Shown: piece by piece, positions 15,113-24,676 of the stretch | How positions within the stretch are numbered: the first letter of the stretch is position 1 | How the letters are laid out: each line of letters opens with the position of its first letter | Assembly: GCA_038062615.1 (NCBI GenBank) | Contig: JBBTWV010000002.1 | Span: forward strand, 1 to 56,491 | DNA from: Patescibacteria group bacterium | GTDB taxonomy: Bacteria; Patescibacteriota; Gracilibacteria; UBA1369; UM-FILTER-53-11 | Direction: 5' to 3' | Length of the DNA: 56,491 nucleotides | Translations under genes and position numbers: made by a program | Notes under the pieces: generated by a model | Seen by the model: only the letters and a program-made list of their open reading frames with translations | What the model was told of the DNA's origin: nothing | The model's database searches: none

Positions 15113-15913
15113 TTGGATAACTTTCCTCACGCCGTTCGGATCAAAAAAATCATTAAAGAAACGCCGTTGGTGCGTTCCTACATTTTTGACTACCCGGTGC
15201 GCGCTCTGCCCGGCCAGTTTATTAATATTTGGATTCCGGGAGTTGATGAAAAACCGATGAGCGTAGCTTTTGATGATGGGAAAAGTTATACCCTGGCAAT
15301 TGCCGGAATTGGACATGGAACCCAGGAATTAGAAAAAAAGAAGGTGGGGGACTACATCGGCATTCGCGGTCCGTATGGAACGCACTTCACATGGAAGAAA
15401 AAAGAGCGCATCGCCATGCTAGCAGGAGGATACGGTGCTGGACCTCTCTATTTTGCCGCGGAGTTAGCGGTGGAAGAGGGGTGCCATGTGGATTTTTTCT
15501 TAGGAGCCCGCAGTAAAACGCATCTGCTTTTTGCCGACCGAATTCGCAAACTTAAAAACACGCGTTTTTTGCCATCTACTGATGATGGCTCCGCCGGTTT
15601 TAAAGGCTTCAACGTCGCCTGTTGGACGGAAAAAATGGAGGAAGGCGCCAAGTATGATCGCATTCTTACCTGCGGCCCGGAGCTTATGATGAAGAGCGTT
15701 TCGGATATCTCCTGGGGGAAAAAAATCCCCGCGCAAGTTTCTATTGAGCGCTATATGAAGTGCGGGTTTGGCATTTGCGGTAACTGCTGCGTGGATGATT
15801 TAGGTATTACCACCTGCCAAAACGGCACGGTGATGGATAATGCCGTGGCGCGTAAAATTAAGGAGTTTGGAGTTTATCATCGAGATTCCCTAGGCCGCAA
15901 ACATCAATTTTAG
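15113..15913 (+). CDS. pyrK: Dihydroorotate dehydrogenase electron-transfer subunit
   Basis: Ferredoxin-reductase-like fold and a C-terminal 2Fe-2S cysteine cluster, CGFGICGNCC. Apparent TTG start. Immediately follows pyrD. Confidence 0.85.
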   Translation: MDNFPHAVRIKKIIKETPLVRSYIFDYPVRALPGQFINIWIPGVDEKPMSVAFDDGKSYTLAIAGIGHGTQELEKKKVGDYIGIRGPYGTHFTWKKKERIAMLAGGYGAGPLYFAAELAVEEGCHVDFFLGARSKTHLLFADRIRKLKNTRFLPSTDDGSAGFKGFNVACWTEKMEEGAKYDRILTCGPELMMKSVSDISWGKKIPAQVSIERYMKCGFGICGNCCVDDLGITTCQNGTVMDNAVARKIKEFGVYHRDSLGRKHQF

Positions 15914-15921
15914 CAGGTACT

Positions 15922-15947
15922 TAGAGGGCTTAACGCATGCCCTTTAG
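15922..15947 (+). terminator. Possible intrinsic terminator after pyrK
   Basis: TAGAGGGC-9 nt-GCCCTTTA stem (one G-U pair) followed by a T-rich stretch. It sits between convergent genes. Confidence 0.35.
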
Positions 15948-15955
15948 AGAATTTT

Positions 15956-17773
15956 CTATTTTCTCTTTCTACGCTTTTTTTCCAAAGCAAGCTGGTCTTC
16001 TTGTTCTCTTCTGCGAATTTCTGCCCACGCTTCACTCGCTATTCCCTCTATTGGGAGCCTATCACCACGATTAATATGGGAATTACTAGAAAATCGGTAA
16101 CTCACCCTATTAAGTTCTTCCATAGTGAGATGGGTTTCAATAATATGGGTTTCCCAAAGATGATAGGCAACCGGAAAACTTCGCGTCCTCAAGAGTACAC
16201 CTAAAAGTGTCTTGTCAGCCTCCTCATCTGAATTTGCACAAGCTCTGATTCTGGCAACCGTGTTATCTATAAAAACGTTGTCGTGGTAACCGTCTGCCAA
16301 TTCTGCGGCAAGGTCGCGAGTTTTTTGCCATCCTCGTTCTTGGGCTTCTCGTCTCTGCACATCTTTGTGAGCTTCAAGAGATTTTGCGCGTCTTTGCAAA
16401 ATACTCGTAACATCTAATCCTCTTGCTCCACATGCTGTAACTGCTTCTTGCACAACACGTTCACTCGCCGCATACCGAGCGATTTCCGGCAACAATTCAT
16501 TCGTCAAAACGGCAGGGTAAATATTTTGAAGCACCATCCAAACCACTTCGCATGTTTCATCATCATCGCAATCTGCAAAAAAACTTTTCAGCATATGCAA
16601 ATTATCGGCACCTTGGCCAGTACACTCTATAATGGTGCCTAAAAGGTCGCACGCGGTAGCAGGGTGAGTAGCACGGATGAATTGTTTTACCAAGAAAGCA
16701 AGATGTATACCGGCATGTTCTGCGGTAGCATTTGCATACAATCTTCTGTTGATTGCCATATCATAATCAAAGGTCGGTTCGGTTCTTATTCTTTCGGCAC
16801 GGGCAAGGATAAAACTTCGGTAAACTGGAGATGCATCTCTCAAAACTCTTGTAACTTCCCTTTTACCGGTTCTCACTAATGCAGCACTTTTACTCACTGC
16901 CGCAACAGCTCTGTCGCCGGTATCATCCGCAACTGTCATAATATGAGGCGTTTCATCTGGAGCATCTCCCGGAGGATCCAGTCCCTGTTCGTAAAAACTT
17001 TCTTGGTAAGCAACCTCATCTTGCAAAGCTAAAAGATCTTTAAGCCGTGGAAAGTCCTGCATGTCACTGCCAACTTTTCTCAAAATTTGTTCGCCAACCT
17101 CTCTTTGTTCCTCATCAGGAAGTTGGAATTTATATTGTACTTTAATGGTGCCAAGTCTAGGACTCTCACCCAAATTGAGCGTTTCTTCAATCTCTTTCAA
17201 TAAATCAACAAATGCTTGAATCAGACGCTCTTCAAAATCTCTTCCTGGGGCTTTAGATTCCATGAGCATTCCCATGCTTATAACTGCCTGCGGAGGAACA
17301 GAAGTGTCACGTTTTACTGTTACCAGTTCTACAAATTTTGCTGGTATGGCGGTGGCTAAATCGCCTGCTTGGCGCTCACCGATGATATTGATAAGTTTTT
17401 CCAGAGTTATAATATCGTGTGTGGACAATACTTTCCCCCCTCTTTTGTCCCATTCAACCGTTTCGGTTTTTTCCATGGGTAAATGGAGTATCTCGCTTAT
17501 AGCGTAGTGTCCAGCAAGTTCACTGAACACAACACCATAATCAATTATGAGTAAGTCTATTTTTCGCATGGTTTCTCTATATGCCTCTAAAGAAGTCGGA
17601 TGTTTTTTTTGCTGTGCAACGAGTACTTGTATCTTGGTGGTAATTTCAACAATATTGCGGAGTGCCAGCATTAAGTACTCCAGCAGCAGTTGGAGCCGGT
17701 CGGGTATCTGATTTTCAAAAATGACTAAACGAGTCGCTCCAGATGGCGGGCTTTTATCGAGGCTTTTTCCCAT
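15956..17773 (-). CDS. Orphan 605-aa protein, cassette copy 1 (paralog of 21073-22731); function unknown
   Basis: Long ORF with a leaderless-type promoter. It shares conserved blocks with its paralog (TVEWDK, QAFVDLLK, YQESF, LHMLK.FF, ETCE.VW, FIDNTVARIRAC). I recognise no known catalytic motif. Confidence 0.75.
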   Translation of the reverse strand: MGKSLDKSPPSGATRLVIFENQIPDRLQLLLEYLMLALRNIVEITTKIQVLVAQQKKHPTSLEAYRETMRKIDLLIIDYGVVFSELAGHYAISEILHLPMEKTETVEWDKRGGKVLSTHDIITLEKLINIIGERQAGDLATAIPAKFVELVTVKRDTSVPPQAVISMGMLMESKAPGRDFEERLIQAFVDLLKEIEETLNLGESPRLGTIKVQYKFQLPDEEQREVGEQILRKVGSDMQDFPRLKDLLALQDEVAYQESFYEQGLDPPGDAPDETPHIMTVADDTGDRAVAAVSKSAALVRTGKREVTRVLRDASPVYRSFILARAERIRTEPTFDYDMAINRRLYANATAEHAGIHLAFLVKQFIRATHPATACDLLGTIIECTGQGADNLHMLKSFFADCDDDETCEVVWMVLQNIYPAVLTNELLPEIARYAASERVVQEAVTACGARGLDVTSILQRRAKSLEAHKDVQRREAQERGWQKTRDLAAELADGYHDNVFIDNTVARIRACANSDEEADKTLLGVLLRTRSFPVAYHLWETHIIETHLTMEELNRVSYRFSSNSHINRGDRLPIEGIASEAWAEIRRREQEDQLALEKKRRKRK

Positions 17774-17917
17774 AGGGTGTATTAAACACTAAATTGGCTA
17801 ATTAGTCAACTGGTCGTTTAACCTGTTAAATCTCGTCAAAATAGATCACCTGTGCAGAATTTATTGACGCTCAAACGCATAAGGGAGTAACATAAGGGTG
17901 TAATATTATTACACCCT
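17774..17917. promoter_or_regulatory. Divergent promoter/operator region of cassette copy 1
   Basis: Minus strand: TTGACT (17809-17804), 17 nt, TTTAAT (17786-17781), 7 nt, ATG. AGGG(T/A)GTAA-like motif at 17774-17783, 17882-17891 and 17895-17904, and inverted at 17908-17917. The last two form a 10-bp perfect palindrome that abuts the RHH ATG. Confidence 0.55.
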
Positions 17918-18253
17918 ATGAAGACCCCTTACCGTAAAAAAGTAAAATCAAAATACGCTATTAAGCTGAAGCATATTCCCGTTCTGCCTCCGCTTGGGTC
18001 GGGGTTGTTGTTAGGTAAGAAAGGGCCGCGCAAAAAAGTAAATTTCATGGTGGATCTCAATATTTTAGAAGGCATGAAAATTTTTGTGCCTTTTGGAGAT
18101 AGAAGCGACTTTGTGAATGATGCGGTGGCTTATGCGCTCAAAAAGGCTGCTCAGCGAGAAGCCATGGAATTTATGGATAAAGTTCGGAAAGAAGGGAAGT
18201 TACAGATGACCGACAAGGAGATTAAAGAAGCGATTAATTATGGCCGAAAATAA
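17918..18253 (+). CDS. Ribbon-helix-helix (CopG/VapB-like) antitoxin, copy 1
   Basis: RHH signature KKVNFMVDLNILEGM...GDRSDFVNDAVAYAL. Overlaps the downstream PIN gene by 14 nt. Confidence 0.8.
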   Translation: MKTPYRKKVKSKYAIKLKHIPVLPPLGSGLLLGKKGPRKKVNFMVDLNILEGMKIFVPFGDRSDFVNDAVAYALKKAAQREAMEFMDKVRKEGKLQMTDKEIKEAINYGRK

Positions 18254-18680
18254 ATCTCTCTTCGTCGTAGATGCCTCGGTTCTTTTGAAGTGGTATCTCA
18301 AAGAAGAAAATGATCAAGAACCCGCTTTGCAGCTGCAAACAGACTACCACTACGATAAGATTTCTCTCGCGATTCCGCACTATGCTTGGTCGGAGGTATT
18401 GAATACATTGGGAAGAAAAAAATCCTTTGATGAAGTACTTGCCTATTTTTCGCGTTATTTAGCCTTTGAAATACAGGAATATTCCATCACGCTTGAAATT
18501 GCAGCCGTGGCCATTGAACTTATGGAAAAGTTCCCTAATATAACCTTTTACGATGCCGGTTATCATGCTTTGGCGCTCCAAGAAGGAGGTACTTTTGTAA
18601 CCGCTGATGAAAAATATTTCCAAAAAACAAAAAAGCATGGCGGCATCATGCTCTTGAAAGACTACGGCAAGAAACGCTAG
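18240..18680 (+). CDS. vapC: PIN-domain (VapC-like) toxin, copy 1
   Basis: LFVVDASVLLKW, FYDAGYHALA and TADEKY supply the acidic PIN residues. 146 aa, translationally coupled to the RHH gene. Confidence 0.85.
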   Translation: MAENKSLFVVDASVLLKWYLKEENDQEPALQLQTDYHYDKISLAIPHYAWSEVLNTLGRKKSFDEVLAYFSRYLAFEIQEYSITLEIAAVAIELMEKFPNITFYDAGYHALALQEGGTFVTADEKYFQKTKKHGGIMLLKDYGKKR

Positions 18681-18700
18681 ACTGCCGCAGATGGGTAAGG

Positions 18701-18841
18701 AGTTCTCTAACAGGCCAAGCCGCAGCTCGAGCCAAGGCGAAGATGCCGAATCAAGAAGATTCGGCTTGGCTAAGCAATTAACTCGCCCAAATGATGCTAA
18801 GGCATCAAGCAGAGCAAGCGGCGATGAGGGCGAAACTTCGG
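18701..18841 (+). repeat. Family B nested-hairpin repeat (B1), inserted into a duplicated pyrE 5' fragment
   Basis: TAACAGGCCAAGCCG...CGGCTTGGCTAAGCAATTAACTCGCCC...GAGGGCGAAAC matches the reverse complement of B2-B4. It is absent from the otherwise identical site at 24035/24036. Confidence 0.7.
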
Positions 18842-18874
18842 CTCAAGAAATCGCCGTGTCTCCTTTGGAAAATT

Positions 18875-20317
18875 ATGAATCCTATTTCTCTCGCCGATTT
18901 TAAAACGGCCCATGAGCCAAGAGCTTACGTTAATTCGAGCATTCGCTTTCATCATGAATTCTCGCAGCGCGAACGTCTTAAAGCCGCGCAAAAAGCCGGC
19001 TGGAATGTTTTTCAATTTCCTTCAGAAATGCTGAAAGGAGGTGATCTGCTCTCCGATTCGGGAACAACGACCATGACGGTGGAACAAGTTGCCGCGATGT
19101 TTCTTGGCGATGAAGCTTACGGAAGCAATTACGGCTATTTCCAGCTTCTTGAAACTTTTGAAGAAGTATTCGGAATTCCTTCCCAACAAACTGAAGTTTT
19201 TTTCTTCCATCAAGGCCGGGCGGCCGAACATGCTCTCTTTTCACAAATTGGAAAATTTGGCGAGCACCTCATTATTCCCAGCAACGGTCATTTTGATACC
19301 ACCCGTGCCAACATAGAAAATAATCGCATTGCGGCAAAAGATTGTTTTTCGCCACAACTTCATTCAAAGCAAACGGCACCTTTTAAAGGAAATATGGATT
19401 TGGCGGTTTTAGAGCGGATTCTGCAGGAAAATTCCCAAAATATTCCTCTTGTTTATGTCACTATCACCAACAACAGCGGCGGCGGGCAGCCGGTTTCGCT
19501 GGCCAATATAAAGGCTGTAAGAAAACTTTGCGACCACTATGCTAAGCCGTTATTTTTGGATGCCTGCCGTTTTGCCGAAAACTCTTGGTTTATTAAAGCT
19601 CGCGAAAAAGAATACGCCGGCAGAACCGTCCGAAATATTGTAAAAGAAATTTTCGCCCTCTGCGACGGATTTACCATCTCTCTCAAAAAGGACGGCTTGG
19701 CCAACATGGGAGGTGCGCTTGTCATCAAAAAAAAGAGTCCGCTTGTAGGTGAGCATCCGCGCCTTTTAAATGATATTCGGGATCATCAAATTCTCACCGA
19801 AGGTCATCCCACCTACGGCGGCCTTTCCGGCCGTGACATTATGACGCTTTGTGTGGGGCTTAAAACGGCCGTTACCGAGCAGTATCTCAAAAGCCGCATC
19901 GGTTTGGTGCATGAATTCGGACGCATGCTTAAAAAGGCAAAAGTTCCCGTACTGGAACCTTTTGGCGGACATGCCATATATTTAGATATGGACAAATTTT
20001 TTGTTAAAACCAAGCATCAGCGTGCGGATTTTGGCGGTATTGCTTTCACCGGTTTGTTGCTCCTCAAGGGCGTTCGTCTTTGCGAACTCGGCGCTTTTGC
20101 TTTTGGGGAAAATCATCCTCATAATTTTGTCCGCGCGGCGGTTCCCCGCAATAAATACGAACTGGAAGATCTTGCCTATGTTGCCGATTGCATCCAGGGG
20201 CTTTATGAAAAACGCCGCGAAATTCCGCGGGCCGTTCCGGTATATGGCCGCGACTTAACACTTCGCCATTTTAAGGCGAGGTTTAAGCTGGAGGCTTTTT
20301 CCTCATTAGTTAGCTGA
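18875..20317 (+). CDS. Beta-eliminating lyase (tryptophanase / tyrosine phenol-lyase family), PLP-dependent
   Basis: DLLSDSGTTTM, GDEAYGS, HQGRAAEH, and a PLP-lysine context SLKKDGLANMGGAL resembling TnaA. The tracked ORF start (18791) runs through repeat B1, so the ATG at 18875 (MNPISLADF) is preferred. Confidence 0.85.
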   Translation: MNPISLADFKTAHEPRAYVNSSIRFHHEFSQRERLKAAQKAGWNVFQFPSEMLKGGDLLSDSGTTTMTVEQVAAMFLGDEAYGSNYGYFQLLETFEEVFGIPSQQTEVFFFHQGRAAEHALFSQIGKFGEHLIIPSNGHFDTTRANIENNRIAAKDCFSPQLHSKQTAPFKGNMDLAVLERILQENSQNIPLVYVTITNNSGGGQPVSLANIKAVRKLCDHYAKPLFLDACRFAENSWFIKAREKEYAGRTVRNIVKEIFALCDGFTISLKKDGLANMGGALVIKKKSPLVGEHPRLLNDIRDHQILTEGHPTYGGLSGRDIMTLCVGLKTAVTEQYLKSRIGLVHEFGRMLKKAKVPVLEPFGGHAIYLDMDKFFVKTKHQRADFGGIAFTGLLLLKGVRLCELGAFAFGENHPHNFVRAAVPRNKYELEDLAYVADCIQGLYEKRREIPRAVPVYGRDLTLRHFKARFKLEAFSSLVS

Positions 20318-20414
20318 TTTCTCCCTGTTAGGCTCTTAGGGAATCTCTGAAAAACATCTTGCAAGCTGCGATTATTGTATTTTGGCCGCAAACACCTATT
20401 CGCAAAATAAAAGT

Positions 20415-20443
20415 TTGCACTAACGCTGCTAGTGCGCTATAAT
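20415..20443 (+). promoter_or_regulatory. Promoter TTGCAC-17 nt-TATAAT with inverted repeat GCACTA/TAGTGC in the spacer; ATG 6 nt after the -10
   Basis: TTGCAC at 20415-20420, TATAAT at 20438-20443, ATG at 20450. Confidence 0.55.
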
Positions 20444-20449
20444 ACGCCT

Positions 20450-20677
20450 ATGTCGAATCTTACCATCCGTATCAATGAAAATTTAAAGAAGAAGGCTGCA
20501 AAAGAAGCAGGCAAGCTTGGCATATCCCTTACGTTTGTGGTGATTAATGCCCTTAACCATTTTATTGAATCACCTAAAATTACCATTGGCGAACCGGAAG
20601 ATGTTATGGTGACCCCTGATCTTCAAAAGAGCATGGATACCATTGGCAGGCTGATATCCAAAAAGCAGCGTAAATGA
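20450..20677 (+). CDS. RelB/DinJ-type ribbon-helix-helix antitoxin
   Basis: MSNLTIRINENLKKKAAKEAGKLGISLTFVVINAL is typical of an RHH N-terminus. Its stop overlaps the next ATG (ATGA). The tracked GTG start at 20432 lies inside the promoter. Confidence 0.7.
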   Translation: MSNLTIRINENLKKKAAKEAGKLGISLTFVVINALNHFIESPKITIGEPEDVMVTPDLQKSMDTIGRLISKKQRK

Positions 20678-21054
20678 GACTCATCCTTACTGATTCAATC
20701 AAAAAGAGTGAGCTCTCGCCGCTGGAGAAGGTTTTTCCGTTGAAAGTCATTCAAATTGCTGCACGGAAAGCGCTTTTAGGGCTGGGGGAATCCATAAAAA
20801 ATCCCATGAAAGTTCCTTTTACTTGCCTCAAAAAACTTTATCTGACAGGAACAAGCGGCGCAGGGCGCGTCATCTTTTTACTGCTTACCAATGAACAGCA
20901 ATCTGTCTTGGTAATGCTCAGGCACAAAAATGACAAAAAAATCGGGGCAAACATGGCGATACAAAATCCGCGATTTAAGGGACTTTTGGAACGGAATTTA
21001 AACCTTATTGCCAAGGATCTTCAAAACGGTAAATTTGAAGCCAGCGAAATTTGA
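20674..21054 (+). CDS. Putative RelE/ParE-superfamily toxin
   Basis: 126 aa, coupled to the antitoxin. GAGRVIFLLLTNEQQSVLVMLRHKND resembles the RelE/ParE beta-strand plus hR(K) pattern. The assignment is tentative. Confidence 0.55.
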   Translation: MRLILTDSIKKSELSPLEKVFPLKVIQIAARKALLGLGESIKNPMKVPFTCLKKLYLTGTSGAGRVIFLLLTNEQQSVLVMLRHKNDKKIGANMAIQNPRFKGLLERNLNLIAKDLQNGKFEASEI

Positions 21055-21072
21055 TTATCTCGGCCTTCTTTT

Positions 21073-22731
21073 TCAGGAAGCTTTTGGCTTTCGCCTGTCA
21101 ATTTCCGCACTTGCTTCTTTCCATATCTCATCGCACGGATGCTTACCACCCCAAGGATTAAATCTTTCTGTGACTTTATCAAGTTCTTCATCGCTCATGT
21201 GTGATTCAATGATATGCTTTGACCACAAATACCAGGCCGTGTACAGGTTGGTATGCAGCAATACATTTACAAGAATTTTTCTGGCTTCTTCCTCGGAAGT
21301 TGTGCAAGCCCTTATTCTTGCCACCGTGTTATCAATGAATTTTCCGTCAGGTTCCTTGTCCCTCAACTCGGCGGTAAGGTCGCGAATTTTTTTATAATTT
21401 CTATCTCGAGCTTCCTGGCTCTTAACCTCACGGTGTGCCACAAGTGATCCTGCACGTTTTTCTAAAATGCTCTCGGCGTCCAGTCCTCTTGTCCGACATT
21501 CGGCGATGGCGGCCTGGGCAACGCGATCGCTCGTGGTATATAGGGCTATCTCTGCCAACAGCTCGTTCGTCAAAACAGGCTCATAATTTTGCAATTCATC
21601 CCAGACTGCCTCACACGTTTCTAGATCTTCACACCAAACAAAGAAAGTTTTTAGCATGTGCAGAAAGTCCGTGCCTTCATCAAAAGATTCCATGATCATG
21701 TGGAGGAGCGCACATGCGGAATAGGCATGGGTCGCGGCATGGAACTGGTCTACTAAGAATGTCCGATGTAAGCCTACATGCTCCTCGGTTGCTGTGGCAT
21801 GCCATTCTCTCGCTACTCCTCGATAATAATCAAAGGTGATTTCAGTTCTGATGCTTTGTGCACGGGCTAACATGAACCTTTGATATGGAGGAGATACGGC
21901 GGCGAGCACTTCAAGGACTTGTCTTCTCCCATGATTCACCAAGGCAGAGCTTTTATCCACAACCGCAAGAGCGCTCTCGCCAACTCCTTCCGTCATGGAT
22001 GCAATATCGGCGGTTTCATAAGTGGGCTCCGCAGGAGGTTCCATCCCTTGCTCCAAAAAACTTTCCTGGTAGGTAAGGCTATCTCTCAAATCCAAAAGAT
22101 CGCCTATCCTTGGAAATTCCTCAGTATTGCTACCAACTTTTTGTAAAATTCTTTCGGCAACGCGTCTTCGCTCATCATCATCCATTTTAAATTTATAGCG
22201 CGTTTCTATAATTCCTATCGCCGGTCTCCTACTATGGAGGTTGTTCTCAATCTGCTTGAGTAAATCAACAAATGCTTGAGTGAGCCGTTCCGCAAAATCT
22301 TTTTCTGGAGTGTAAGGTTTCATATCCATATCGGTGGATAGTGGTCTAAGCTTTTGGCGGTGCACAGCCAAGTCCACAAAGTCTTGCGGTGCATGGACCG
22401 TAAGGTTGGAAACCTGCTGCTCACTTATTAATTTCAAAACAGTTCCGATAGTTGAAATATCTTTTGTAGATATTACTTTTTCGCCTATTTTGTCCCATTC
22501 AACGGTTCGAATTTCTTCCATTTGCAAATTCAGTATTTCGCCAACAGCGTAATGTCCCACCAGCATGCTCATTTCGAGGCTATAATCAGCTATTAGGTTA
22601 TTAATTTCCAATATGGTTTTTTGATATGCAGTTAAGGTAGTTGGGTGTTCTCTTTGCTCTGTTACAAGTTTTTGTGCGGTCGTAGAGATTTCGATGAGTT
22701 TTCTCATCCCTCTTATTAAATAATTCAGCAA
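21073..22731 (-). CDS. Orphan protein, cassette copy 2 (paralog of 15956-17773), N-terminally disrupted by a frameshift
   Basis: 552-aa ORF from an internal TTG. The homologous ATG is at 22781 in another frame. One extra C in the C5 run (22755-22759) would restore MDKPSGETPQIPDKLEPLLNYL, which aligns with copy 1. Confidence 0.7.
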   Translation of the reverse strand: MLNYLIRGMRKLIEISTTAQKLVTEQREHPTTLTAYQKTILEINNLIADYSLEMSMLVGHYAVGEILNLQMEEIRTVEWDKIGEKVISTKDISTIGTVLKLISEQQVSNLTVHAPQDFVDLAVHRQKLRPLSTDMDMKPYTPEKDFAERLTQAFVDLLKQIENNLHSRRPAIGIIETRYKFKMDDDERRRVAERILQKVGSNTEEFPRIGDLLDLRDSLTYQESFLEQGMEPPAEPTYETADIASMTEGVGESALAVVDKSSALVNHGRRQVLEVLAAVSPPYQRFMLARAQSIRTEITFDYYRGVAREWHATATEEHVGLHRTFLVDQFHAATHAYSACALLHMIMESFDEGTDFLHMLKTFFVWCEDLETCEAVWDELQNYEPVLTNELLAEIALYTTSDRVAQAAIAECRTRGLDAESILEKRAGSLVAHREVKSQEARDRNYKKIRDLTAELRDKEPDGKFIDNTVARIRACTTSEEEARKILVNVLLHTNLYTAWYLWSKHIIESHMSDEELDKVTERFNPWGGKHPCDEIWKEASAEIDRRKPKAS

Positions 22732-22781
22732 TGGCTCAAGCTTGTCTGGGATTTGGGGGTTTCACCAGATGGCTTGTCCAT

Positions 22782-22935
22782 AAGGTGCATATTAAACACT
22801 AAATTAACAGATAAGTCAACAGGTTCGTAACCTGTTATGTCTGATGGTAGGTTTTAAAACTGGGTTGGCGACTCAGAATCAATTGATGTTCAAAATCGTA
22901 TGGAGTAACATAAGGGTGTAACAATCTTACTCCCT
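22782..22935. promoter_or_regulatory. Divergent promoter/operator region of cassette copy 2
   Basis: Conserved TTGACT (22819-22814), 17 nt, TTTAAT (22796-22791). Operator-like motifs at 22902-22909 and 22913-22922, and inverted at 22926-22935. Confidence 0.5.
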
Positions 22936-23268
22936 ATGAACACCCCCCGCAAAAAAGTAAAAGCCAAATACGCTATCAAACTCAAACATTTTCCTGTTTG
23001 TCCTCAATTTGGATCTGCGTTTTTTGGCTCAGGGAAAAGACCTCGGAAGAAAGTAAATTTTATGGTGAATATGGATCTTTTGGAAGCCATAACATTTTTG
23101 GTCCCTTCGGGTAGCAGGAGCGAATTTGTAAATGAAGCCGTGGAAGAAGCTCTCAGGGATTTTGCCCGAAGAAAAGCAATAGAGGCGATGGATGAATTTC
23201 GTAGGAAAAATAAATGGAAAATGACGGACGAAGAAATTCGTAAAGCTATCAATTATGGTCGCAAATAG
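22936..23268 (+). CDS. Ribbon-helix-helix (CopG/VapB-like) antitoxin, copy 2
   Basis: Paralog of 17918-18253 (KKVNFMVNMDLLEAI...GSRSEFVNEAVEEAL). Intact. Confidence 0.8.
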   Translation: MNTPRKKVKAKYAIKLKHFPVCPQFGSAFFGSGKRPRKKVNFMVNMDLLEAITFLVPSGSRSEFVNEAVEEALRDFARRKAIEAMDEFRRKNKWKMTDEEIRKAINYGRK

Positions 23269-23695
23269 GCCGCTCTTCATTGTTGATGCCTCTGTGATTT
23301 TAAAGTGGTTCCTCTTTGAGCCGGATTCCCAGGAACAGTCACTCCATCTCCGGCGAGATTATTTTGAGAGGAAGGTGGAGCTAGCTGTTCTTAACTATAC
23401 TTATGCTGAAATTTTGAATACTTTAGGGCGAATTCTCCCCCAAGAGAAAGCGCTTTCGGCCTTTTCTCAGCTGTTGATGTATCAATTGCAGTAATACCAT
23501 ACCACTATGGAATTAGCTTCGATGGGTTGCGAACTCATGAAGAATTTTTCTGGTGTCACCTTTTATGATTCTGGTTATCATGCCTTGGCTCTACAGGAAG
23601 GTGGCACATTTATAACCGCCGATGAAAAATATTTCCAAAAAACAAAGAAACAAGGCGGGGTAATGCTCTTGAAAGACTACGGCAAGAAACGCTAG
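23255..23695 (+). pseudogene. vapC: PIN-domain toxin, copy 2, interrupted by an in-frame TAA at 23492-23494
   Basis: The two ORFs 23255-23494 and 23507-23695 are in the same frame and align collinearly with copy 1. The TAA aligns with GAA (Glu) of copy 1. Confidence 0.75.
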
Positions 23696-24011
23696 GAGCT
23701 GTACGCCTTTTGCAATAATTATTTTTTATTTAATAATCCACAGGCGATAGCAAAACCTGCGCTTATTATGGCTATTCCTATGCTTGCACTTGCTGGTGCA
23801 TTTTCCCAAAGCCAAAGCGGAGCCGTTACTATATTTGCTGCAAAAAATATTGAAAGGAAAAAATAAATTTTGTGCATAAATTTAATGAAATAAAATACAA
23901 CAGTTGGTATTTTATCCTTTTTTACTATGGCGTACAACATCCGCGCCACTCGTGCCTAGAATCCAGATCTGCTAGAATACAACCATCCCAAGCTCGTTAT
24001 GCTAACAGCTC
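23696..24011. mobile_element. 316-bp insertion with 7-bp terminal inverted repeats (GAGCTGT/ACAGCTC) flanked by duplicated CTAG
   Basis: Copy 1 reads ...GAAACGCTAG|ACTGCCGCAGATG. Copy 2 reads ...GAAACGCTAG|GAGCTGT...ACAGCTC|CTAG|ACTGCCGCAGATG. Confidence 0.55.
23719..23949 (-). CDS. Small two-TM hydrophobic protein carried on the 316-bp insertion
   Basis: 76-aa ORF with two hydrophobic helices (IYFFLSIFFAANIVTAPLWLW; IGIAIISAGFAIACGLL) in a region that looks AT-rich by eye. Confidence 0.45.
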   Translation of the reverse strand: MARMLYAIVKKDKIPTVVFYFIKFMHKIYFFLSIFFAANIVTAPLWLWENAPASASIGIAIISAGFAIACGLLNKK

Positions 24012-24025
24012 CTAGACTGCCGCAG

Positions 24026-24676
24026 ATGAACAAGGCTCAAGAAATCGCCAAAATCCTACTCGACATCGGGGCTGTGAAGGTGAGCATGGATCCGCCGTTT
24101 ACGTGGACCTCTGGCATAAAATCTCCGGTATATTGTGATAACCGCAAACTTATTTCGCATCCCAAAGAGCGGCAGGCGGTGGTAAAAGCATTCGCTGATT
24201 TGGTGCGCGAAAAAAAACTGGATCCGGAATATATTGGCGGAACCGCCACGGCGGCCATTCCTTGGGCGGCATTTTTGGCTTATGAGCTCAACTTACCCAT
24301 GGTGTATATTCGTCCGGAAAAAAAGGAACACGGTGCGGGCCGGCAAGTGGAAGGGGATCTGCCGCCTGGCAAACGCGTCCTCATTGTGGAGGATCTTATT
24401 TCTACCGGTGGATCTTCGGTAAATGCGGCTAAAGCCGTACAGCAAGAATGCCAAGGCGTGGTTACGGATGTGCTTGCGATTGTTACTTACGAATTAGATG
24501 AAGCTCAGCAAAAATTCCAGGAATCCGGTTTGCATATTTCTACGCTTACGAATTTTTCAAATATTATCGGTTTGGCGCTTGAGCGCGGGAATATTACACA
24601 AGAACAATGGGGAAAAATTTTGGAATTTAGAAAAAATCCAAGAAGTTGGTTTTCAGTTTTTGGGCTGGAATCATAG
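24026..24676 (+). CDS. pyrE: Orotate phosphoribosyltransferase
   Basis: PRPP-binding motif VLIVEDLISTGGS and TSGIKSPVYCDNR. The ATG at 24026 (MNKAQEIA) is preferred over the tracked start at 23999, which lies inside the insertion. Confidence 0.9.
   Translation: MNKAQEIAKILLDIGAVKVSMDPPFTWTSGIKSPVYCDNRKLISHPKERQAVVKAFADLVREKKLDPEYIGGTATAAIPWAAFLAYELNLPMVYIRPEKKEHGAGRQVEGDLPPGKRVLIVEDLISTGGSSVNAAKAVQQECQGVVTDVLAIVTYELDEAQQKFQESGLHISTLTNFSNIIGLALERGNITQEQWGKILEFRKNPRSWFSVFGLES

Follow-up and report, generated by a model that had tools for sequence, protein, structure and literature searches.

Here, we describe a toxin-antitoxin (TA) pair and an orphan gene that lie within the pyrimidine operon of a Patescibacterium from groundwater. 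Within the window, i.e., the whole 56,491-nt stretch of DNA that was analyzed, a gene for a large protein (large1, large2) lies head to head with a gene pair for an antitoxin-like protein, probably of the ribbon-helix-helix (RHH) type, and a PIN nuclease (Table 1). This block is present twice in direct orientation with a copy 1 to copy 2 spacing of 5010 to 5066 nt, and all six ORFs were found at or near the coordinates given in an earlier note on this DNA, which had described a duplicated three-gene architecture with copies ∼5 kb apart. The large proteins, estimated there at ∼40 to 50% identity, align over 561 aa with 50% identity and 67% similarity (E = 0); RHH1 and RHH2 are 59% (E = 4e-46) and PIN1 and PIN2 58.6% identical. 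The neighborhood consists of core housekeeping genes rather than a defense island, and no defense-system model in PADLOC matched.

Table 1. Features of the two gene blocks and their flanks (positions in the window).
Feature	Position	Strand	Description
large1	15956–17773	−	605-aa ORFan, predicted all-alpha, C-terminal half helical-repeat-like
Operator-like half-site AGGGTGTAT	17774–17782	+	Abuts large1 start codon
Inferred large1 promoter	17781–17809	−	TTGACT (17804–17809), 17 nt, TTTAAT (17781–17786); consensus match only
RHH1-PIN1 promoter	17864–17893	+	TTGACG, 18 nt, TAACAT
Direct half-site AGGGAGTAA	17882–17890	+	Adjoins −10 hexamer of RHH1-PIN1 promoter
Putative palindromic operator/5′ leader hairpin	17895–17917	+	AGGGTGTAAT-ATT-ATTACACCCT; ends at RHH1 ATG
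RHH1	17918–18253	+	111-aa antitoxin-like protein, probable RHH
PIN1	18240–18680	+	146-aa VapC-like PIN nuclease, appears intact; 14-nt overlap with RHH1
PIN-pyrE junction relic and first ∼24 nt of pyrE	18677–18855	+	Two pieces downstream of PIN1
large2	21073–22731	−	large1 paralog; 552-codon ORF from TTG, open to 22761
Inferred large2 promoter	22791–22819	−	TTGACT (22814–22819), 17 nt, TTTAAT (22791–22796)
RHH2 promoter and operator palindrome	22883–22935	+	TTGATG, 17 nt, TAACAT; AGGGTGTAA-CAATC-TTACTCCCT
RHH2	22936–23268	+	110 aa, intact ORF
PIN2	23255–23695	+	Pseudogene or split gene; catalytic residues otherwise retained
AT-rich insertion, 316 bp	23696–24011		Separates PIN2 from ancestral PIN-pyrE junction

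The RHH-PIN pair is, by its sequence features, a VapBC-like two-gene TA module. PIN1 matches the Pfam PIN family at 5.6e-13 with 50 bits (cut-off, 23.6 bits), its nearest solved PIN is the archaeal PAE0151 (8e-5), and, as in VapBC, four acidic residues are conserved (D11, E52, D105, and D123, invariant among 56 sequences). As in VapBC modules with RHH antitoxins, e.g., FitAB of Neisseria gonorrhoeae, the antitoxin gene overlaps the downstream PIN gene; the antitoxin shows a β-strand and two helices in its N-terminal part and ends in a conserved tail (NYGRK); repeats, both palindromic and direct, overlap the promoter of the antitoxin gene itself; and the family is multicopy in genomes carrying members. 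Unlike in VapBC, these antitoxins have an extra basic insertion of ∼27 aa, which is lineage-specific and located near the N terminus; several diverged genomes have the module at a fixed place within the pyrimidine operon; its divergent ORFan neighbor occurs in this lineage only; and matches to RHH profiles are weak (RHH_6, E = 0.055; 56B_RHH, 0.0043; RHH_1, 0.029; HicB RHH region in the PDB, E = 0.8). Profiles therefore back the RHH half of the pair named in the earlier note only weakly. The antitoxin would neutralize the PIN ribonuclease encoded by the overlapping gene via its C-terminal tail.

RHH-PIN is widespread in Peribacteria/Peregrinibacteria as a two-gene pair, in many cases located between pyrK and pyrE. 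The large protein lacks homologs beyond a narrow lineage, and the co-occurrence test suggested in the earlier note could therefore be run only in reverse, i.e., from the PIN side. We collected loci with PIN relatives from GTDB (80 loci) and from metagenomic contigs (9), most of which also have RHH. The outcome was negative: a large-protein relative was found in 0 of the 80 and 0 of the 9 (tblastn at 1e-4; hmmsearch --max at E ≤ 10). RHH-PIN without the large gene is present at L005, L006, L008, L009, L011 to L013, and nearly all Peribacteria loci among L014 to L046; L007 has PIN only. PIN is tightly spaced with pyrE, with a gap of 1 to 10 nt at L007, L008, L011, L016, and L018 and of 32 nt at L006. 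The upstream neighbors of RHH-PIN that were inspected are diverse, and the one read through encodes the housekeeping protein PurH (L046). The pyrK-pyrE interval of relatives encodes a 290-aa protein (L005), a FecR-like 307-aa protein (L008), or a 424-aa protein (L011), and in this genome it also holds a lyase and a RelB-like pair. We suggest that RHH-PIN is a long-standing chromosomal resident, in the order pyrK ... RHH-PIN-pyrE, of a clade of Peribacteria-like Patescibacteria. Since the three large genes trace to one ancestral juxtaposition, their co-occurrence with RHH-PIN amounts to one independent event. Functional analogs beside other RHH-PIN pairs could escape detection by sequence because the large protein evolves fast, a point that counts against a two-gene reading.

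The large protein is, across the collections searched, a true ORFan restricted to a narrow lineage. It matched no family in Pfam, NCBIfam, PADLOC, or PHROGs. HMMER run exhaustively against 1.84 billion representatives and searches through GTDB, JGI, and viral contigs brought up no homolog besides the two paralogs and one fragment. The fragment (130 aa), the third instance of the gene, lies on a 1.3-kb contig of a relative (L002). An AF2 model of large1 has a pLDDT of 51.7 over its full length and of 82.5 over the C-terminal 266 aa. PDB sequences and Foldseek gave no informative relative, the Foldseek matches being generic HEAT/PUF/TPR folds (E ≥ 0.015, TM < 0.3), and neither a transposase, integrase, or nuclease fold or family nor a TA-like or defense-like domain was found in the family and Foldseek searches. 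The family, structure, and metagenome searches thus bear out the earlier description of an orphan without a recognizable catalytic family. By contrast, the absence of a conserved HEPN Rx4-6H motif, also claimed there, does not hold: an Rx6H read from the alignment is conserved in both paralogs (RAKSLEAH in large1, R462 to H469; RAGSLVAH in large2), although no HEPN fold backs it. His/Cys residues are conserved in the C-terminal half. The large protein is probably not an enzyme but a binding or scaffold protein. Purifying selection acts on its gene (dN/dS ∼0.2), which evolves ∼2.4 times faster than PIN (dN versus L002, 0.36 and 0.15, respectively); this fast evolution would also suit a role in conflict or defense and, to that extent, speaks against a two-gene reading. 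Genomes of the Candidate Phyla Radiation (CPR)/Patescibacteria contain many genes without detectable homologs. The large protein resembles such ORFans in its narrow distribution, purifying selection, and fast evolution but differs from them in being duplicated with a TA pair and in having a conserved head-to-head control region.

In this control region, the large and RHH promoters lie back to back within 145 to 205 bp. As the earlier note had stated, the intergenic region is conserved, with 77% column identity between the copies, both promoters kept, and the motif AGGGTGTAA clustered there. The TTGACT-N17-TTTAAT element of the large promoter recurs in copy 2 and, as read from the sequence, in L002. 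With only 7 nt from the predicted −10 of large1 to the ATG, the mRNA would be leaderless or nearly so. On the opposite side, the RHH1 leader hairpin has a predicted RNA folding energy of −13.1 kcal/mol, and the arms of its palindrome covary in L002 (AAGGGGTAA/TTACCCCTT). We suggest that the RHH antitoxin represses its own promoter by binding the AGGGTGTAA half-sites, which, as a direct repeat together with a palindrome, would cover the −10 as well as the transcription start and the start codon. The RHH promoter and operator are kept in nine further loci, some without the large gene and some outside the pyr operon. Since relatives devoid of the large gene keep them as well, these elements would serve RHH-PIN autoregulation, not a link to the large gene. 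The earlier note had taken the conservation as a sign of co-regulation, which may still hold, given the back-to-back promoters and the operator-like half-site abutting the large start codon. This half-site matches at 8/9 positions in copy 1 and is weaker in copy 2 and L002 (∼6/9 by our reading). It is spanned by an exact 11-mer, TACACCCTATG, which is also found at the RHH1 start codon and, in the window, occurs only at 17771 to 17781 (−) and 17910 to 17920 (+). The half-site and the 11-mer common to both starts fit poorly with a two-gene reading. At most, the large promoter may be under partial RHH control via one half-site at its start.

The block appears to have been duplicated long ago, and one copy seems to be decaying. 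Nucleotide divergence between the copies is 40 to 45%, and synonymous sites are saturated (dS ∼1.8). A neighbor-joining tree of PIN without bootstrap, in which (PIN1, L002) is sister to (PIN2, P0008), is consistent with an old duplication inside the lineage. The head-to-head order and the intergenic region are kept in both copies despite this divergence, while other genes of the interval vary among relatives, an observation that runs counter to a two-gene reading. In copy 2, the earlier note missed two defects. PIN2 is not an intact ORF and has an in-frame TAA at 23492 to 23494 where PIN1 has Glu. The large2 ORF reported in the earlier note exists, but it lacks the N terminus present in large1 and the L002 ortholog: the conserved, leaderless-type ancestral ATG (22779 to 22781) opens an 18-codon frame (MDKPSGETPKSQTSLSHC*), with the main ORF in another frame. 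Because the ancestral ATG is out of frame, large2 is 5′-truncated or starting to decay. The same sequence, at 100% identity over 22579 to 23692, is present in ENA contig L094 and in Logan contig L095, which stems from a different run (ERR3858126); neither defect is therefore an assembly error. That PIN2 and large2 are damaged and RHH2 is intact could reflect the joint loss of a functional unit, again at odds with a two-gene reading. A signal of gene conversion between the PIN copies is seen in PIN1, whose last 138 nt are 87% identical to PIN2 and 68% to its ortholog, while the preceding 150 nt have the reverse pattern (54% versus 79%). The pyrE 5′ relic behind PIN1 adds to this signal.

Altogether, we favor, with a probability of roughly 60%, a two-gene TA core with a neighboring lineage-specific ORFan, in a block that was duplicated and of which copy 2 is decaying. 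In this model, the fast-evolving ORFan (∼570 to 605 aa, all-alpha, with its own leaderless-type promoter) came head to head with RHH-PIN in the lineage of this MAG. The large-RHH-PIN block would then have been duplicated between pyrK and pyrE, at a time before the L002 organism had split off, and gene conversion between the two copies would have followed. In the pyrE-proximal copy, decay would now be under way, with a nonsense codon in PIN2, a 5′ frameshift in large2, and RHH2 intact. We infer this order of events, as well as RHH repression, leaderless transcription, and a scaffold role of the large protein.

The earlier proposal of a tripartite TA or defense system is unsupported, as is an obligatory role of the large gene as third TA component: the gene is absent from the related RHH-PIN loci examined, the operator is also kept where it is missing, and no PADLOC model matched. 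In known tripartite TA systems, e.g., TAC (HigBA with a SecB-like chaperone), omega-epsilon-zeta, PaaR2-PaaA2-ParE2, and PasABC, the third component comes from a small gene of the same operon, its fold is recognizable as that of a chaperone or regulator, and homologous systems keep it together with the pair. The locus described here is similar in having three neighboring genes including a TA pair and a possible shared control region; however, its third gene encodes ∼600 aa without a recognizable fold family, is divergently transcribed, and is missing from all other RHH-PIN family members examined. A genuine three-component system, in which RHH co-regulates the large protein through the shared divergent region and the large protein acts as a partner of RHH-PIN, e.g., as a sensor or trigger releasing PIN, a scaffold directing PIN to its substrate, or a second effector, is unlikely. 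It would account for the arrangement and intergenic region being kept in all three known instances, for the start-site motifs, for the purifying selection on and conflict-like fast evolution of the large gene, and for the shared damage to PIN2 and large2. It is difficult to reconcile with relatives that are almost always two-gene, with instances that trace to a single juxtaposition, with the degenerate half-site in copy 2 and L002, and with the housekeeping context.

It is quite improbable, at the other extreme, that the large gene is unrelated to the TA pair, e.g., encoding a lineage-specific host-interaction or structural protein of a type usual in Patescibacteria, with passive segmental duplication explaining the two copies and coincidence or a local translation-initiation preference explaining the likeness at the start codons. 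The variable pyrK-pyrE slot, with different unrelated genes in relatives, the large gene's own promoter in the opposite direction, and its lack of a TA-like or defense-like domain fit this idea, but an exact 11-mer restricted to two start codons is unlikely by chance, and three diverged copies share the head-to-head spacing and the central part of the intergenic sequence. We consider it highly improbable that the cassette is a small mobile element inserted twice in the pyr operon, with the large protein as a novel recombinase or transposase and RHH-PIN as addiction module. TA modules often ride on mobile elements, two copies lie within one 8-kb interval, and the conserved His/Cys residues would be compatible with such an enzyme; yet the cassette ends have no repeats or target-site duplications, no transposase, integrase, or nuclease match was obtained, no third copy was found in the window or in any collection, relatives devoid of the large gene have RHH-PIN at the same place in the chromosome, and the divergence of the copies is unlike that of recent transposition.

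The 316-bp insertion has no other copy in the window and is at most a candidate mobile element. A CTAG duplication and 7-bp inverted ends (GAGCTGT/ACAGCTC) flank it, and its minus strand contains a hydrophobic ORF of 76 aa. Downstream of PIN1, the relic of the pyrE junction consists of a 17-mer at 18677 (= 24012) and a 16-mer at 18840 (= 24034), which are 146 nt apart (∼141 nt inserted relative to pyrE) and separated by strongly structured sequence.

Here, we find that the duplicated three-gene block between pyrK and pyrE is most plausibly built from a two-gene VapBC-type module (an RHH antitoxin and a PIN toxin) and a neighboring ORFan, the divergent large gene, that is at most transcriptionally co-opted, a reading to which we give a probability of about 0.6. 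The duplication, on which the earlier note had based its proposal of an uncharacterized tripartite module, is borne out. The two large proteins, large1 and large2, align over 561 residues with 50% identity and 67% similarity (E = 0), RHH1 and RHH2 are 59% identical and PIN1 and PIN2 58.6% identical, and repeat analysis places the two copies 5010-5066 nt apart, start to start, in direct orientation. This is far beyond chance, and the duplication is real. Although the finding itself stands, the locus is far less unusual than that note had proposed.

Coordinates of the duplicated block, its regulatory elements and related loci (positions refer to the window unless a locus handle, L, for another contig or genome is given)
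Feature	Position or locus	Strand	Details
large1	15956-17773	-	605 aa, ORF listing
RHH1	17918-18253	+	111 aa, ORF listing
PIN1	18240-18680	+	146 aa, ORF listing
large2	21073-22731	-	552 aa from TTG, ORF listing
RHH2	22936-23268	+	110 aa, intact
PIN2 reading frame	23255-23695	+	interrupted by in-frame TAA
RHH1 promoter, sigma-70-like	17864-17893	+	TTGACG-18-TAACAT
RHH2 promoter, sigma-70-like	22883-22911	+	TTGATG-17-TAACAT
Palindrome	17895-17917	+	AGGGTGTAAT-ATT-ATTACACCCT; ends exactly at RHH1 ATG
Large-gene -10/start region	17771-17786, 22779-22796; L002 365-390
~27-aa basic insertion in antitoxin	17918-18030, 22936-23045; L005 3301-3400
Gene-conversion tract	18543-18855 vs 23558-24049
RHH-PIN in pyr operon	15113-24676; L007, L008, L011/L023, L016, L018, L005, L006, L034
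Gene order	L007		pyrD-pyrK-PIN-pyrE-pyrF-ksgA-ATPase
Gene order	L008		pyrK-FecR-like-lyase-RHH-PIN-pyrE
Gene order	L011 (GCA_016186205.1)		pyrD-pyrK-424 aa-lyase-RHH-PIN-pyrE...pyrF-ksgA-ATPase-trmD-rpsI
Gene order	L016		pyrD-pyrK-RHH-PIN-pyrE-pyrF
Gene order	L018, L005, L006		similar to pyrK...PIN-pyrE loci
Gene order	L034		RHH-PIN between pyrC and pyrD

The RHH-PIN pair shares with VapBC modules a PIN toxin with conserved acidic active-site residues, a small upstream antitoxin gene that overlaps the toxin gene, and repeats and a palindrome at the predicted promoter of the antitoxin itself. PIN1 matches the Pfam PIN family (PF01850) at 5.6e-13 with 50 bits (cut-off 23.6), the acidic residues D11, E52, D105 and D123 are invariant across 56 family members including PIN2, and a profile of 37 family members matches PAE0151 (PDB 2fe1) at 8e-5. 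Against the NCBIfam VapC equivalog, PIN1 scores 20 bits, under the cut-off of 80. RHH1 and PIN1 overlap by 14 nt, as do their counterparts in copy 2, and the pairing is kept in most related loci. For the antitoxin, all profile matches are sub-threshold (RHH_6, 0.055; 56B_RHH, 0.0043; RHH_1, 0.029; the RHH region of HicB in the PDB, 0.8); the pattern KKVNFMID...ERSDFVNEALEEAL is compatible with a strand-helix-helix arrangement, and the C-terminal tail is conserved. The antitoxins of the window and of the related locus L005 have an extra basic stretch, about 27 aa long with the pattern KKVK.KYAIKLKH.PV..., that separates the conserved M-x-T-P/S start from the RHH strand and is absent from most antitoxin relatives (80-84 aa).

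A direct half-site, the short operator-like motif, abuts the -10 hexamer of each RHH promoter, and the combination of half-site and palindrome at this promoter is kept in both copies and in nine further loci. Folded as RNA, the palindrome forms a 5' hairpin of -13.1 kcal/mol; it may work at the DNA level as an operator, at the RNA level as a hairpin, or in both ways. Because the palindrome fills the whole leader, no Shine-Dalgarno sequence precedes the RHH start at the usual spacing. Scanning the window for Rfam families and tRNAs gave no match. The same promoter-operator layout is kept in five relatives that all lack the large gene (L005, L008, L009, L011 and L016) and also outside the pyr operon (L025, L026 and L029). 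On the other side of the divergent region, the promoter-like -10 element of the large gene (TTTAAT) lies 7-9 nt before the ATG in 3/3 instances, so close that a leaderless or near-leaderless mRNA is implied.

The search for relatives gave 55 PIN homologs, and we examined nine of their contigs together with 80 GTDB loci retrieved via a PIN alignment, all of which carry PIN relatives and most of which also carry an RHH gene. The window belongs to a Patescibacteria MAG with locus tags AAB588_, and its relatives are labelled Candidatus Peribacteria or Peregrinibacteria. None of the 80 loci and none of the nine metagenomic contigs encodes a relative of the large protein (tblastn at 1e-4; hmmsearch --max at E<=10), which speaks against the suggestion that the large gene is a third component co-occurring with RHH-PIN; the only orthologue is in L002, a fragment with the same three genes. 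A 564-aa divergent gene beside the pair in L046 was considered as an analogue of the large gene and discarded, as its sequence reads as PurH. Because the large gene is absent from these loci and the promoter-operator layout persists without it, RHH-PIN is a self-contained two-gene module that brings its own predicted autoregulatory region; judged from its distribution, the large gene appears to be a late, lineage-specific addition. The locus exemplifies what is common in Patescibacteria, a VapBC-type module in the chromosome beside an orphan gene specific to the lineage, and does not establish a new class of system.

RHH-PIN occupies the position pyrK...RHH-PIN-pyrE in at least eight diverged Peribacteria/Peregrinibacteria genomes, and the slot from pyrK to the pair contains varying, unrelated genes. 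A position this stable is unusual for a toxin-antitoxin (TA) module; other members of the RHH-PIN family occupy unrelated housekeeping positions, several per genome. In five relatives only 1-10 nt separate PIN from pyrE, which suggests co-transcription of pyrE with the pair or translational coupling between them. The positional stability also hints that TA autoregulation and pyrE expression may be linked, and a TA module fixed at one spot in a biosynthetic operon across diverged genomes makes it worth asking whether the two are tied. A gene for a beta-eliminating lyase (18875-20317; Pfam, 2.5e-56) is likewise a conserved part of the pyrK-pyrE interval and adjoins the pair on its upstream or downstream side (L002, L008 and L011-L013), with relatives 71-74% identical; it probably starts at the ATG at 18875 and not at 18791. 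A second candidate TA pair lies between the two copies (20432-21054), in which the gene for an 81-aa RelB/DinJ-like protein (NCBIfam, 2.4e-5, under the cut-off; weak HicB match) overlaps that for a 126-aa protein without a family match, whose GRVIFLLLTNEQQSVLVMLRHKND segment is RelE/ParE-like by eye.

The earlier note was right in calling the large protein an orphan. Profile searches of Pfam, NCBIfam, PADLOC, PHROGs and PDB sequences gave zero matches; a word-indexed search of 5.8 billion clusters retrieved only the protein itself; exhaustive profile HMMER against 1.84 billion representatives returned copy 2 as the sole match, in a library clustered at 50% identity in which the paralogs merge into one match; pattern scans of 185,579 GTDB species representatives, JGI metagenomes (twice) and IMG/VR were empty; and tblastn against phages and plasmids found none. 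The sole extra instance, reached via the RHH search, is L002, a 1312-bp Logan contig (SRR22388013). It encodes an N-terminal fragment of 130 aa with 53-55% identity to the two large proteins, divergent from an RHH gene (70% identity across 74 aligned aa) and a PIN gene (74%), after which the same beta-eliminating lyase gene begins as in copy 1. The large gene has a dN/dS of about 0.2 with a saturated dS of about 1.8 and is certainly protein-coding, because frames of >550 codons are kept across this divergence. It evolves ~2.4x faster than PIN (dN 0.36 vs 0.15 between the window and L002), which helps to explain the lack of visible distant homologs.

AlphaFold2 prediction of the full-length large protein from a two-sequence alignment was poor and uninformative for residues 1-350, and the C-terminal half folded alone gave 13 helices (pLDDT 82.5, pTM 0.48). 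Foldseek returned only generic HEAT/PUF/TPR and designed-repeat matches (E>=0.015 in the PDB, best 0.0018 in BFVD, TM<0.3), and we dropped these alpha-solenoid matches as indicators of homology. We read the protein as a predicted alpha-helical, repeat-like protein of no recognizable family and, because of this prediction, very tentatively favor a binding or scaffold role over catalysis. The conserved His/Cys residues in which metal binding had been suspected are present in the alignment, and nothing structural backs them. The alignment also contains a conserved Rx6H motif (RAKSLEAH, R462-H469, in large1; RAGSLVAH in large2), contrary to the statement that no conserved HEPN Rx4-6H exists. Because Pfam gave zero HEPN matches for the large protein and Foldseek zero HEPN structures, this motif is most likely due to chance.

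What remains of the proposed partnership is the divergent intergenic region. Its conservation, including both promoters and the operator-like motif, is confirmed in three instances (copy 1, copy 2 and L002), which all keep the head-to-head order, both promoters and the central block AACCTGTTA. Coupling of the large gene to the pair is further favored by the AGGGTGTAA motif, 6/15 of whose matches in the 56 kb (<=1 mismatch) fall in the two intergenic regions, by the half-site that abuts the large1 start codon, and by the exact 11-mer TACACCCTATG, which occurs only at the start codons of large1 and RHH1. However, copy 2 and L002 have only a degenerate half-site, all three instances amount to one evolutionary event, the pair occurs everywhere else without the large gene, the large protein matches no recognizable defense or TA family, nor the fold of a chaperone or regulator, and the neighborhood consists of core metabolism and ribosomal genes. 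PADLOC-DB 2.0 gave no match for the six proteins at E<=1. In the tripartite TA systems TAC, omega-epsilon-zeta and PaaR-PaaA-ParE, the third gene co-occurs across homologs, lies in the same operon and has a chaperone or regulator fold; here, by contrast, it is missing from all 80 loci and nine contigs, is transcribed divergently from its own promoter and has no match to SecB, HTH or any other family or fold. Our search of the literature on PIN and TA in Patescibacteria and on tripartite VapBC found nothing specific. We regard a true three-component system as unlikely.

In the most novel form of this idea, the RHH antitoxin would control the divergent large gene via the half-site at its start codon, and the predicted alpha-helical repeat ORFan, made from a leaderless mRNA, would serve as a third VapBC partner in a TA or defense system specific to this lineage of Patescibacteria, binding PIN or its RNA target or acting as a sensor that frees PIN. 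We hold this to be rather unlikely; such an RHH-controlled alpha-helical third PIN partner would be moderately interesting if true, and it would represent a new three-component architecture, so far in two organisms only. That the large gene is wholly independent of the pair in function we consider quite improbable. A mobile cassette with a novel recombinase is highly improbable, as the cassette ends carry no repeats, the large protein has no recombinase family or fold, and there are no other copies. A two-gene VapBC-type module beside an ORFan is the reading we retain, and it makes the locus a test case of whether an antitoxin operator can be co-opted to control a neighboring gene.

Copy 2 is decaying (23255-23695 and 22731-22790), with RHH2 intact. 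PIN2 and large2 had been taken for plain ORFs, overlooking a stop codon in the former and a damaged N-terminus in the latter. Because of an in-frame TAA (23492-23494) at the position of a Glu codon in PIN1, PIN2 is a pseudogene or a split gene. In copy 1 and L002, a conserved ATG 7-9 nt downstream of a promoter-like element (TTGACT-N17-TTTAAT) starts a frame (MGK.../MDK...) that leads into the conserved IPDxL..LL.YL block; the equivalent ATG of copy 2 (22779-22781) opens a frame of 18 codons only, and the main ORF of large2 lies in another frame. Over 22579-23692 the window agrees at 100% identity with two independent contigs (L094 from ENA and L095 from Logan, a different run), so these defects are population features and not assembly errors. 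The pattern reads as that of an orphan antitoxin remaining after toxin loss.

A neighbor-joining tree without bootstrap places PIN1 and the L002 PIN as sister to PIN2 and P0008, and this grouping together with the saturated dS argues for an old, in-lineage duplication before the split from L002. The copies have exchanged sequence since. Over its last 138 nt, PIN1 matches PIN2 at 87% identity and the L002 orthologue at 68%; over the preceding 150 nt the values are 54% for PIN2 and 79% for the orthologue, and a sliding window over the two cassettes gives the same rise in identity toward the 3' end of PIN. The PIN1 stop is immediately followed by a two-piece relic, which covers the PIN-pyrE junction and the initial 24 nt of pyrE. 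The pieces, a 17-mer at 18677 (matching 24012) and a 16-mer at 18840 (matching 24034), are separated by 146 nt, a distance that exceeds the one in pyrE by about 141 nt; the sequence between them is strongly structured (137 nt, 18701-18837, -48 kcal/mol). Because the 3' tract of PIN1 is nearer to PIN2 than to its own orthologue, we infer gene conversion between the copies with copy 2 and pyrE as donor. We rejected the relic as the original tandem-duplication junction: at 35/38 nt by count it is too similar to pyrE for a saturated dS, the orthologous junction in L002 lacks it, and it continues the PIN1-PIN2 tract, all of which is better explained by later gene conversion. Altogether, the locus documents the life cycle of a TA paralog that is duplicated, undergoes gene conversion, loses its toxin and keeps its antitoxin.

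An AT-rich insertion of 316 bp (37% GC, 23696-24011) separates PIN2 from the ancestral PIN-pyrE junction. With a 4-bp CTAG duplication at its borders and 7-bp inverted ends (GAGCTGT/ACAGCTC), it looks like a miniature IS5-type element; the window has no second copy. The minus strand of the insertion contains an ORF (23719-23949) for a 76-aa, two-helix hydrophobic protein, promoter-like hexamers at 23709-23737 point toward pyrE, and the real start of pyrE is probably at 24026 and not at the listed ATG at 23999.
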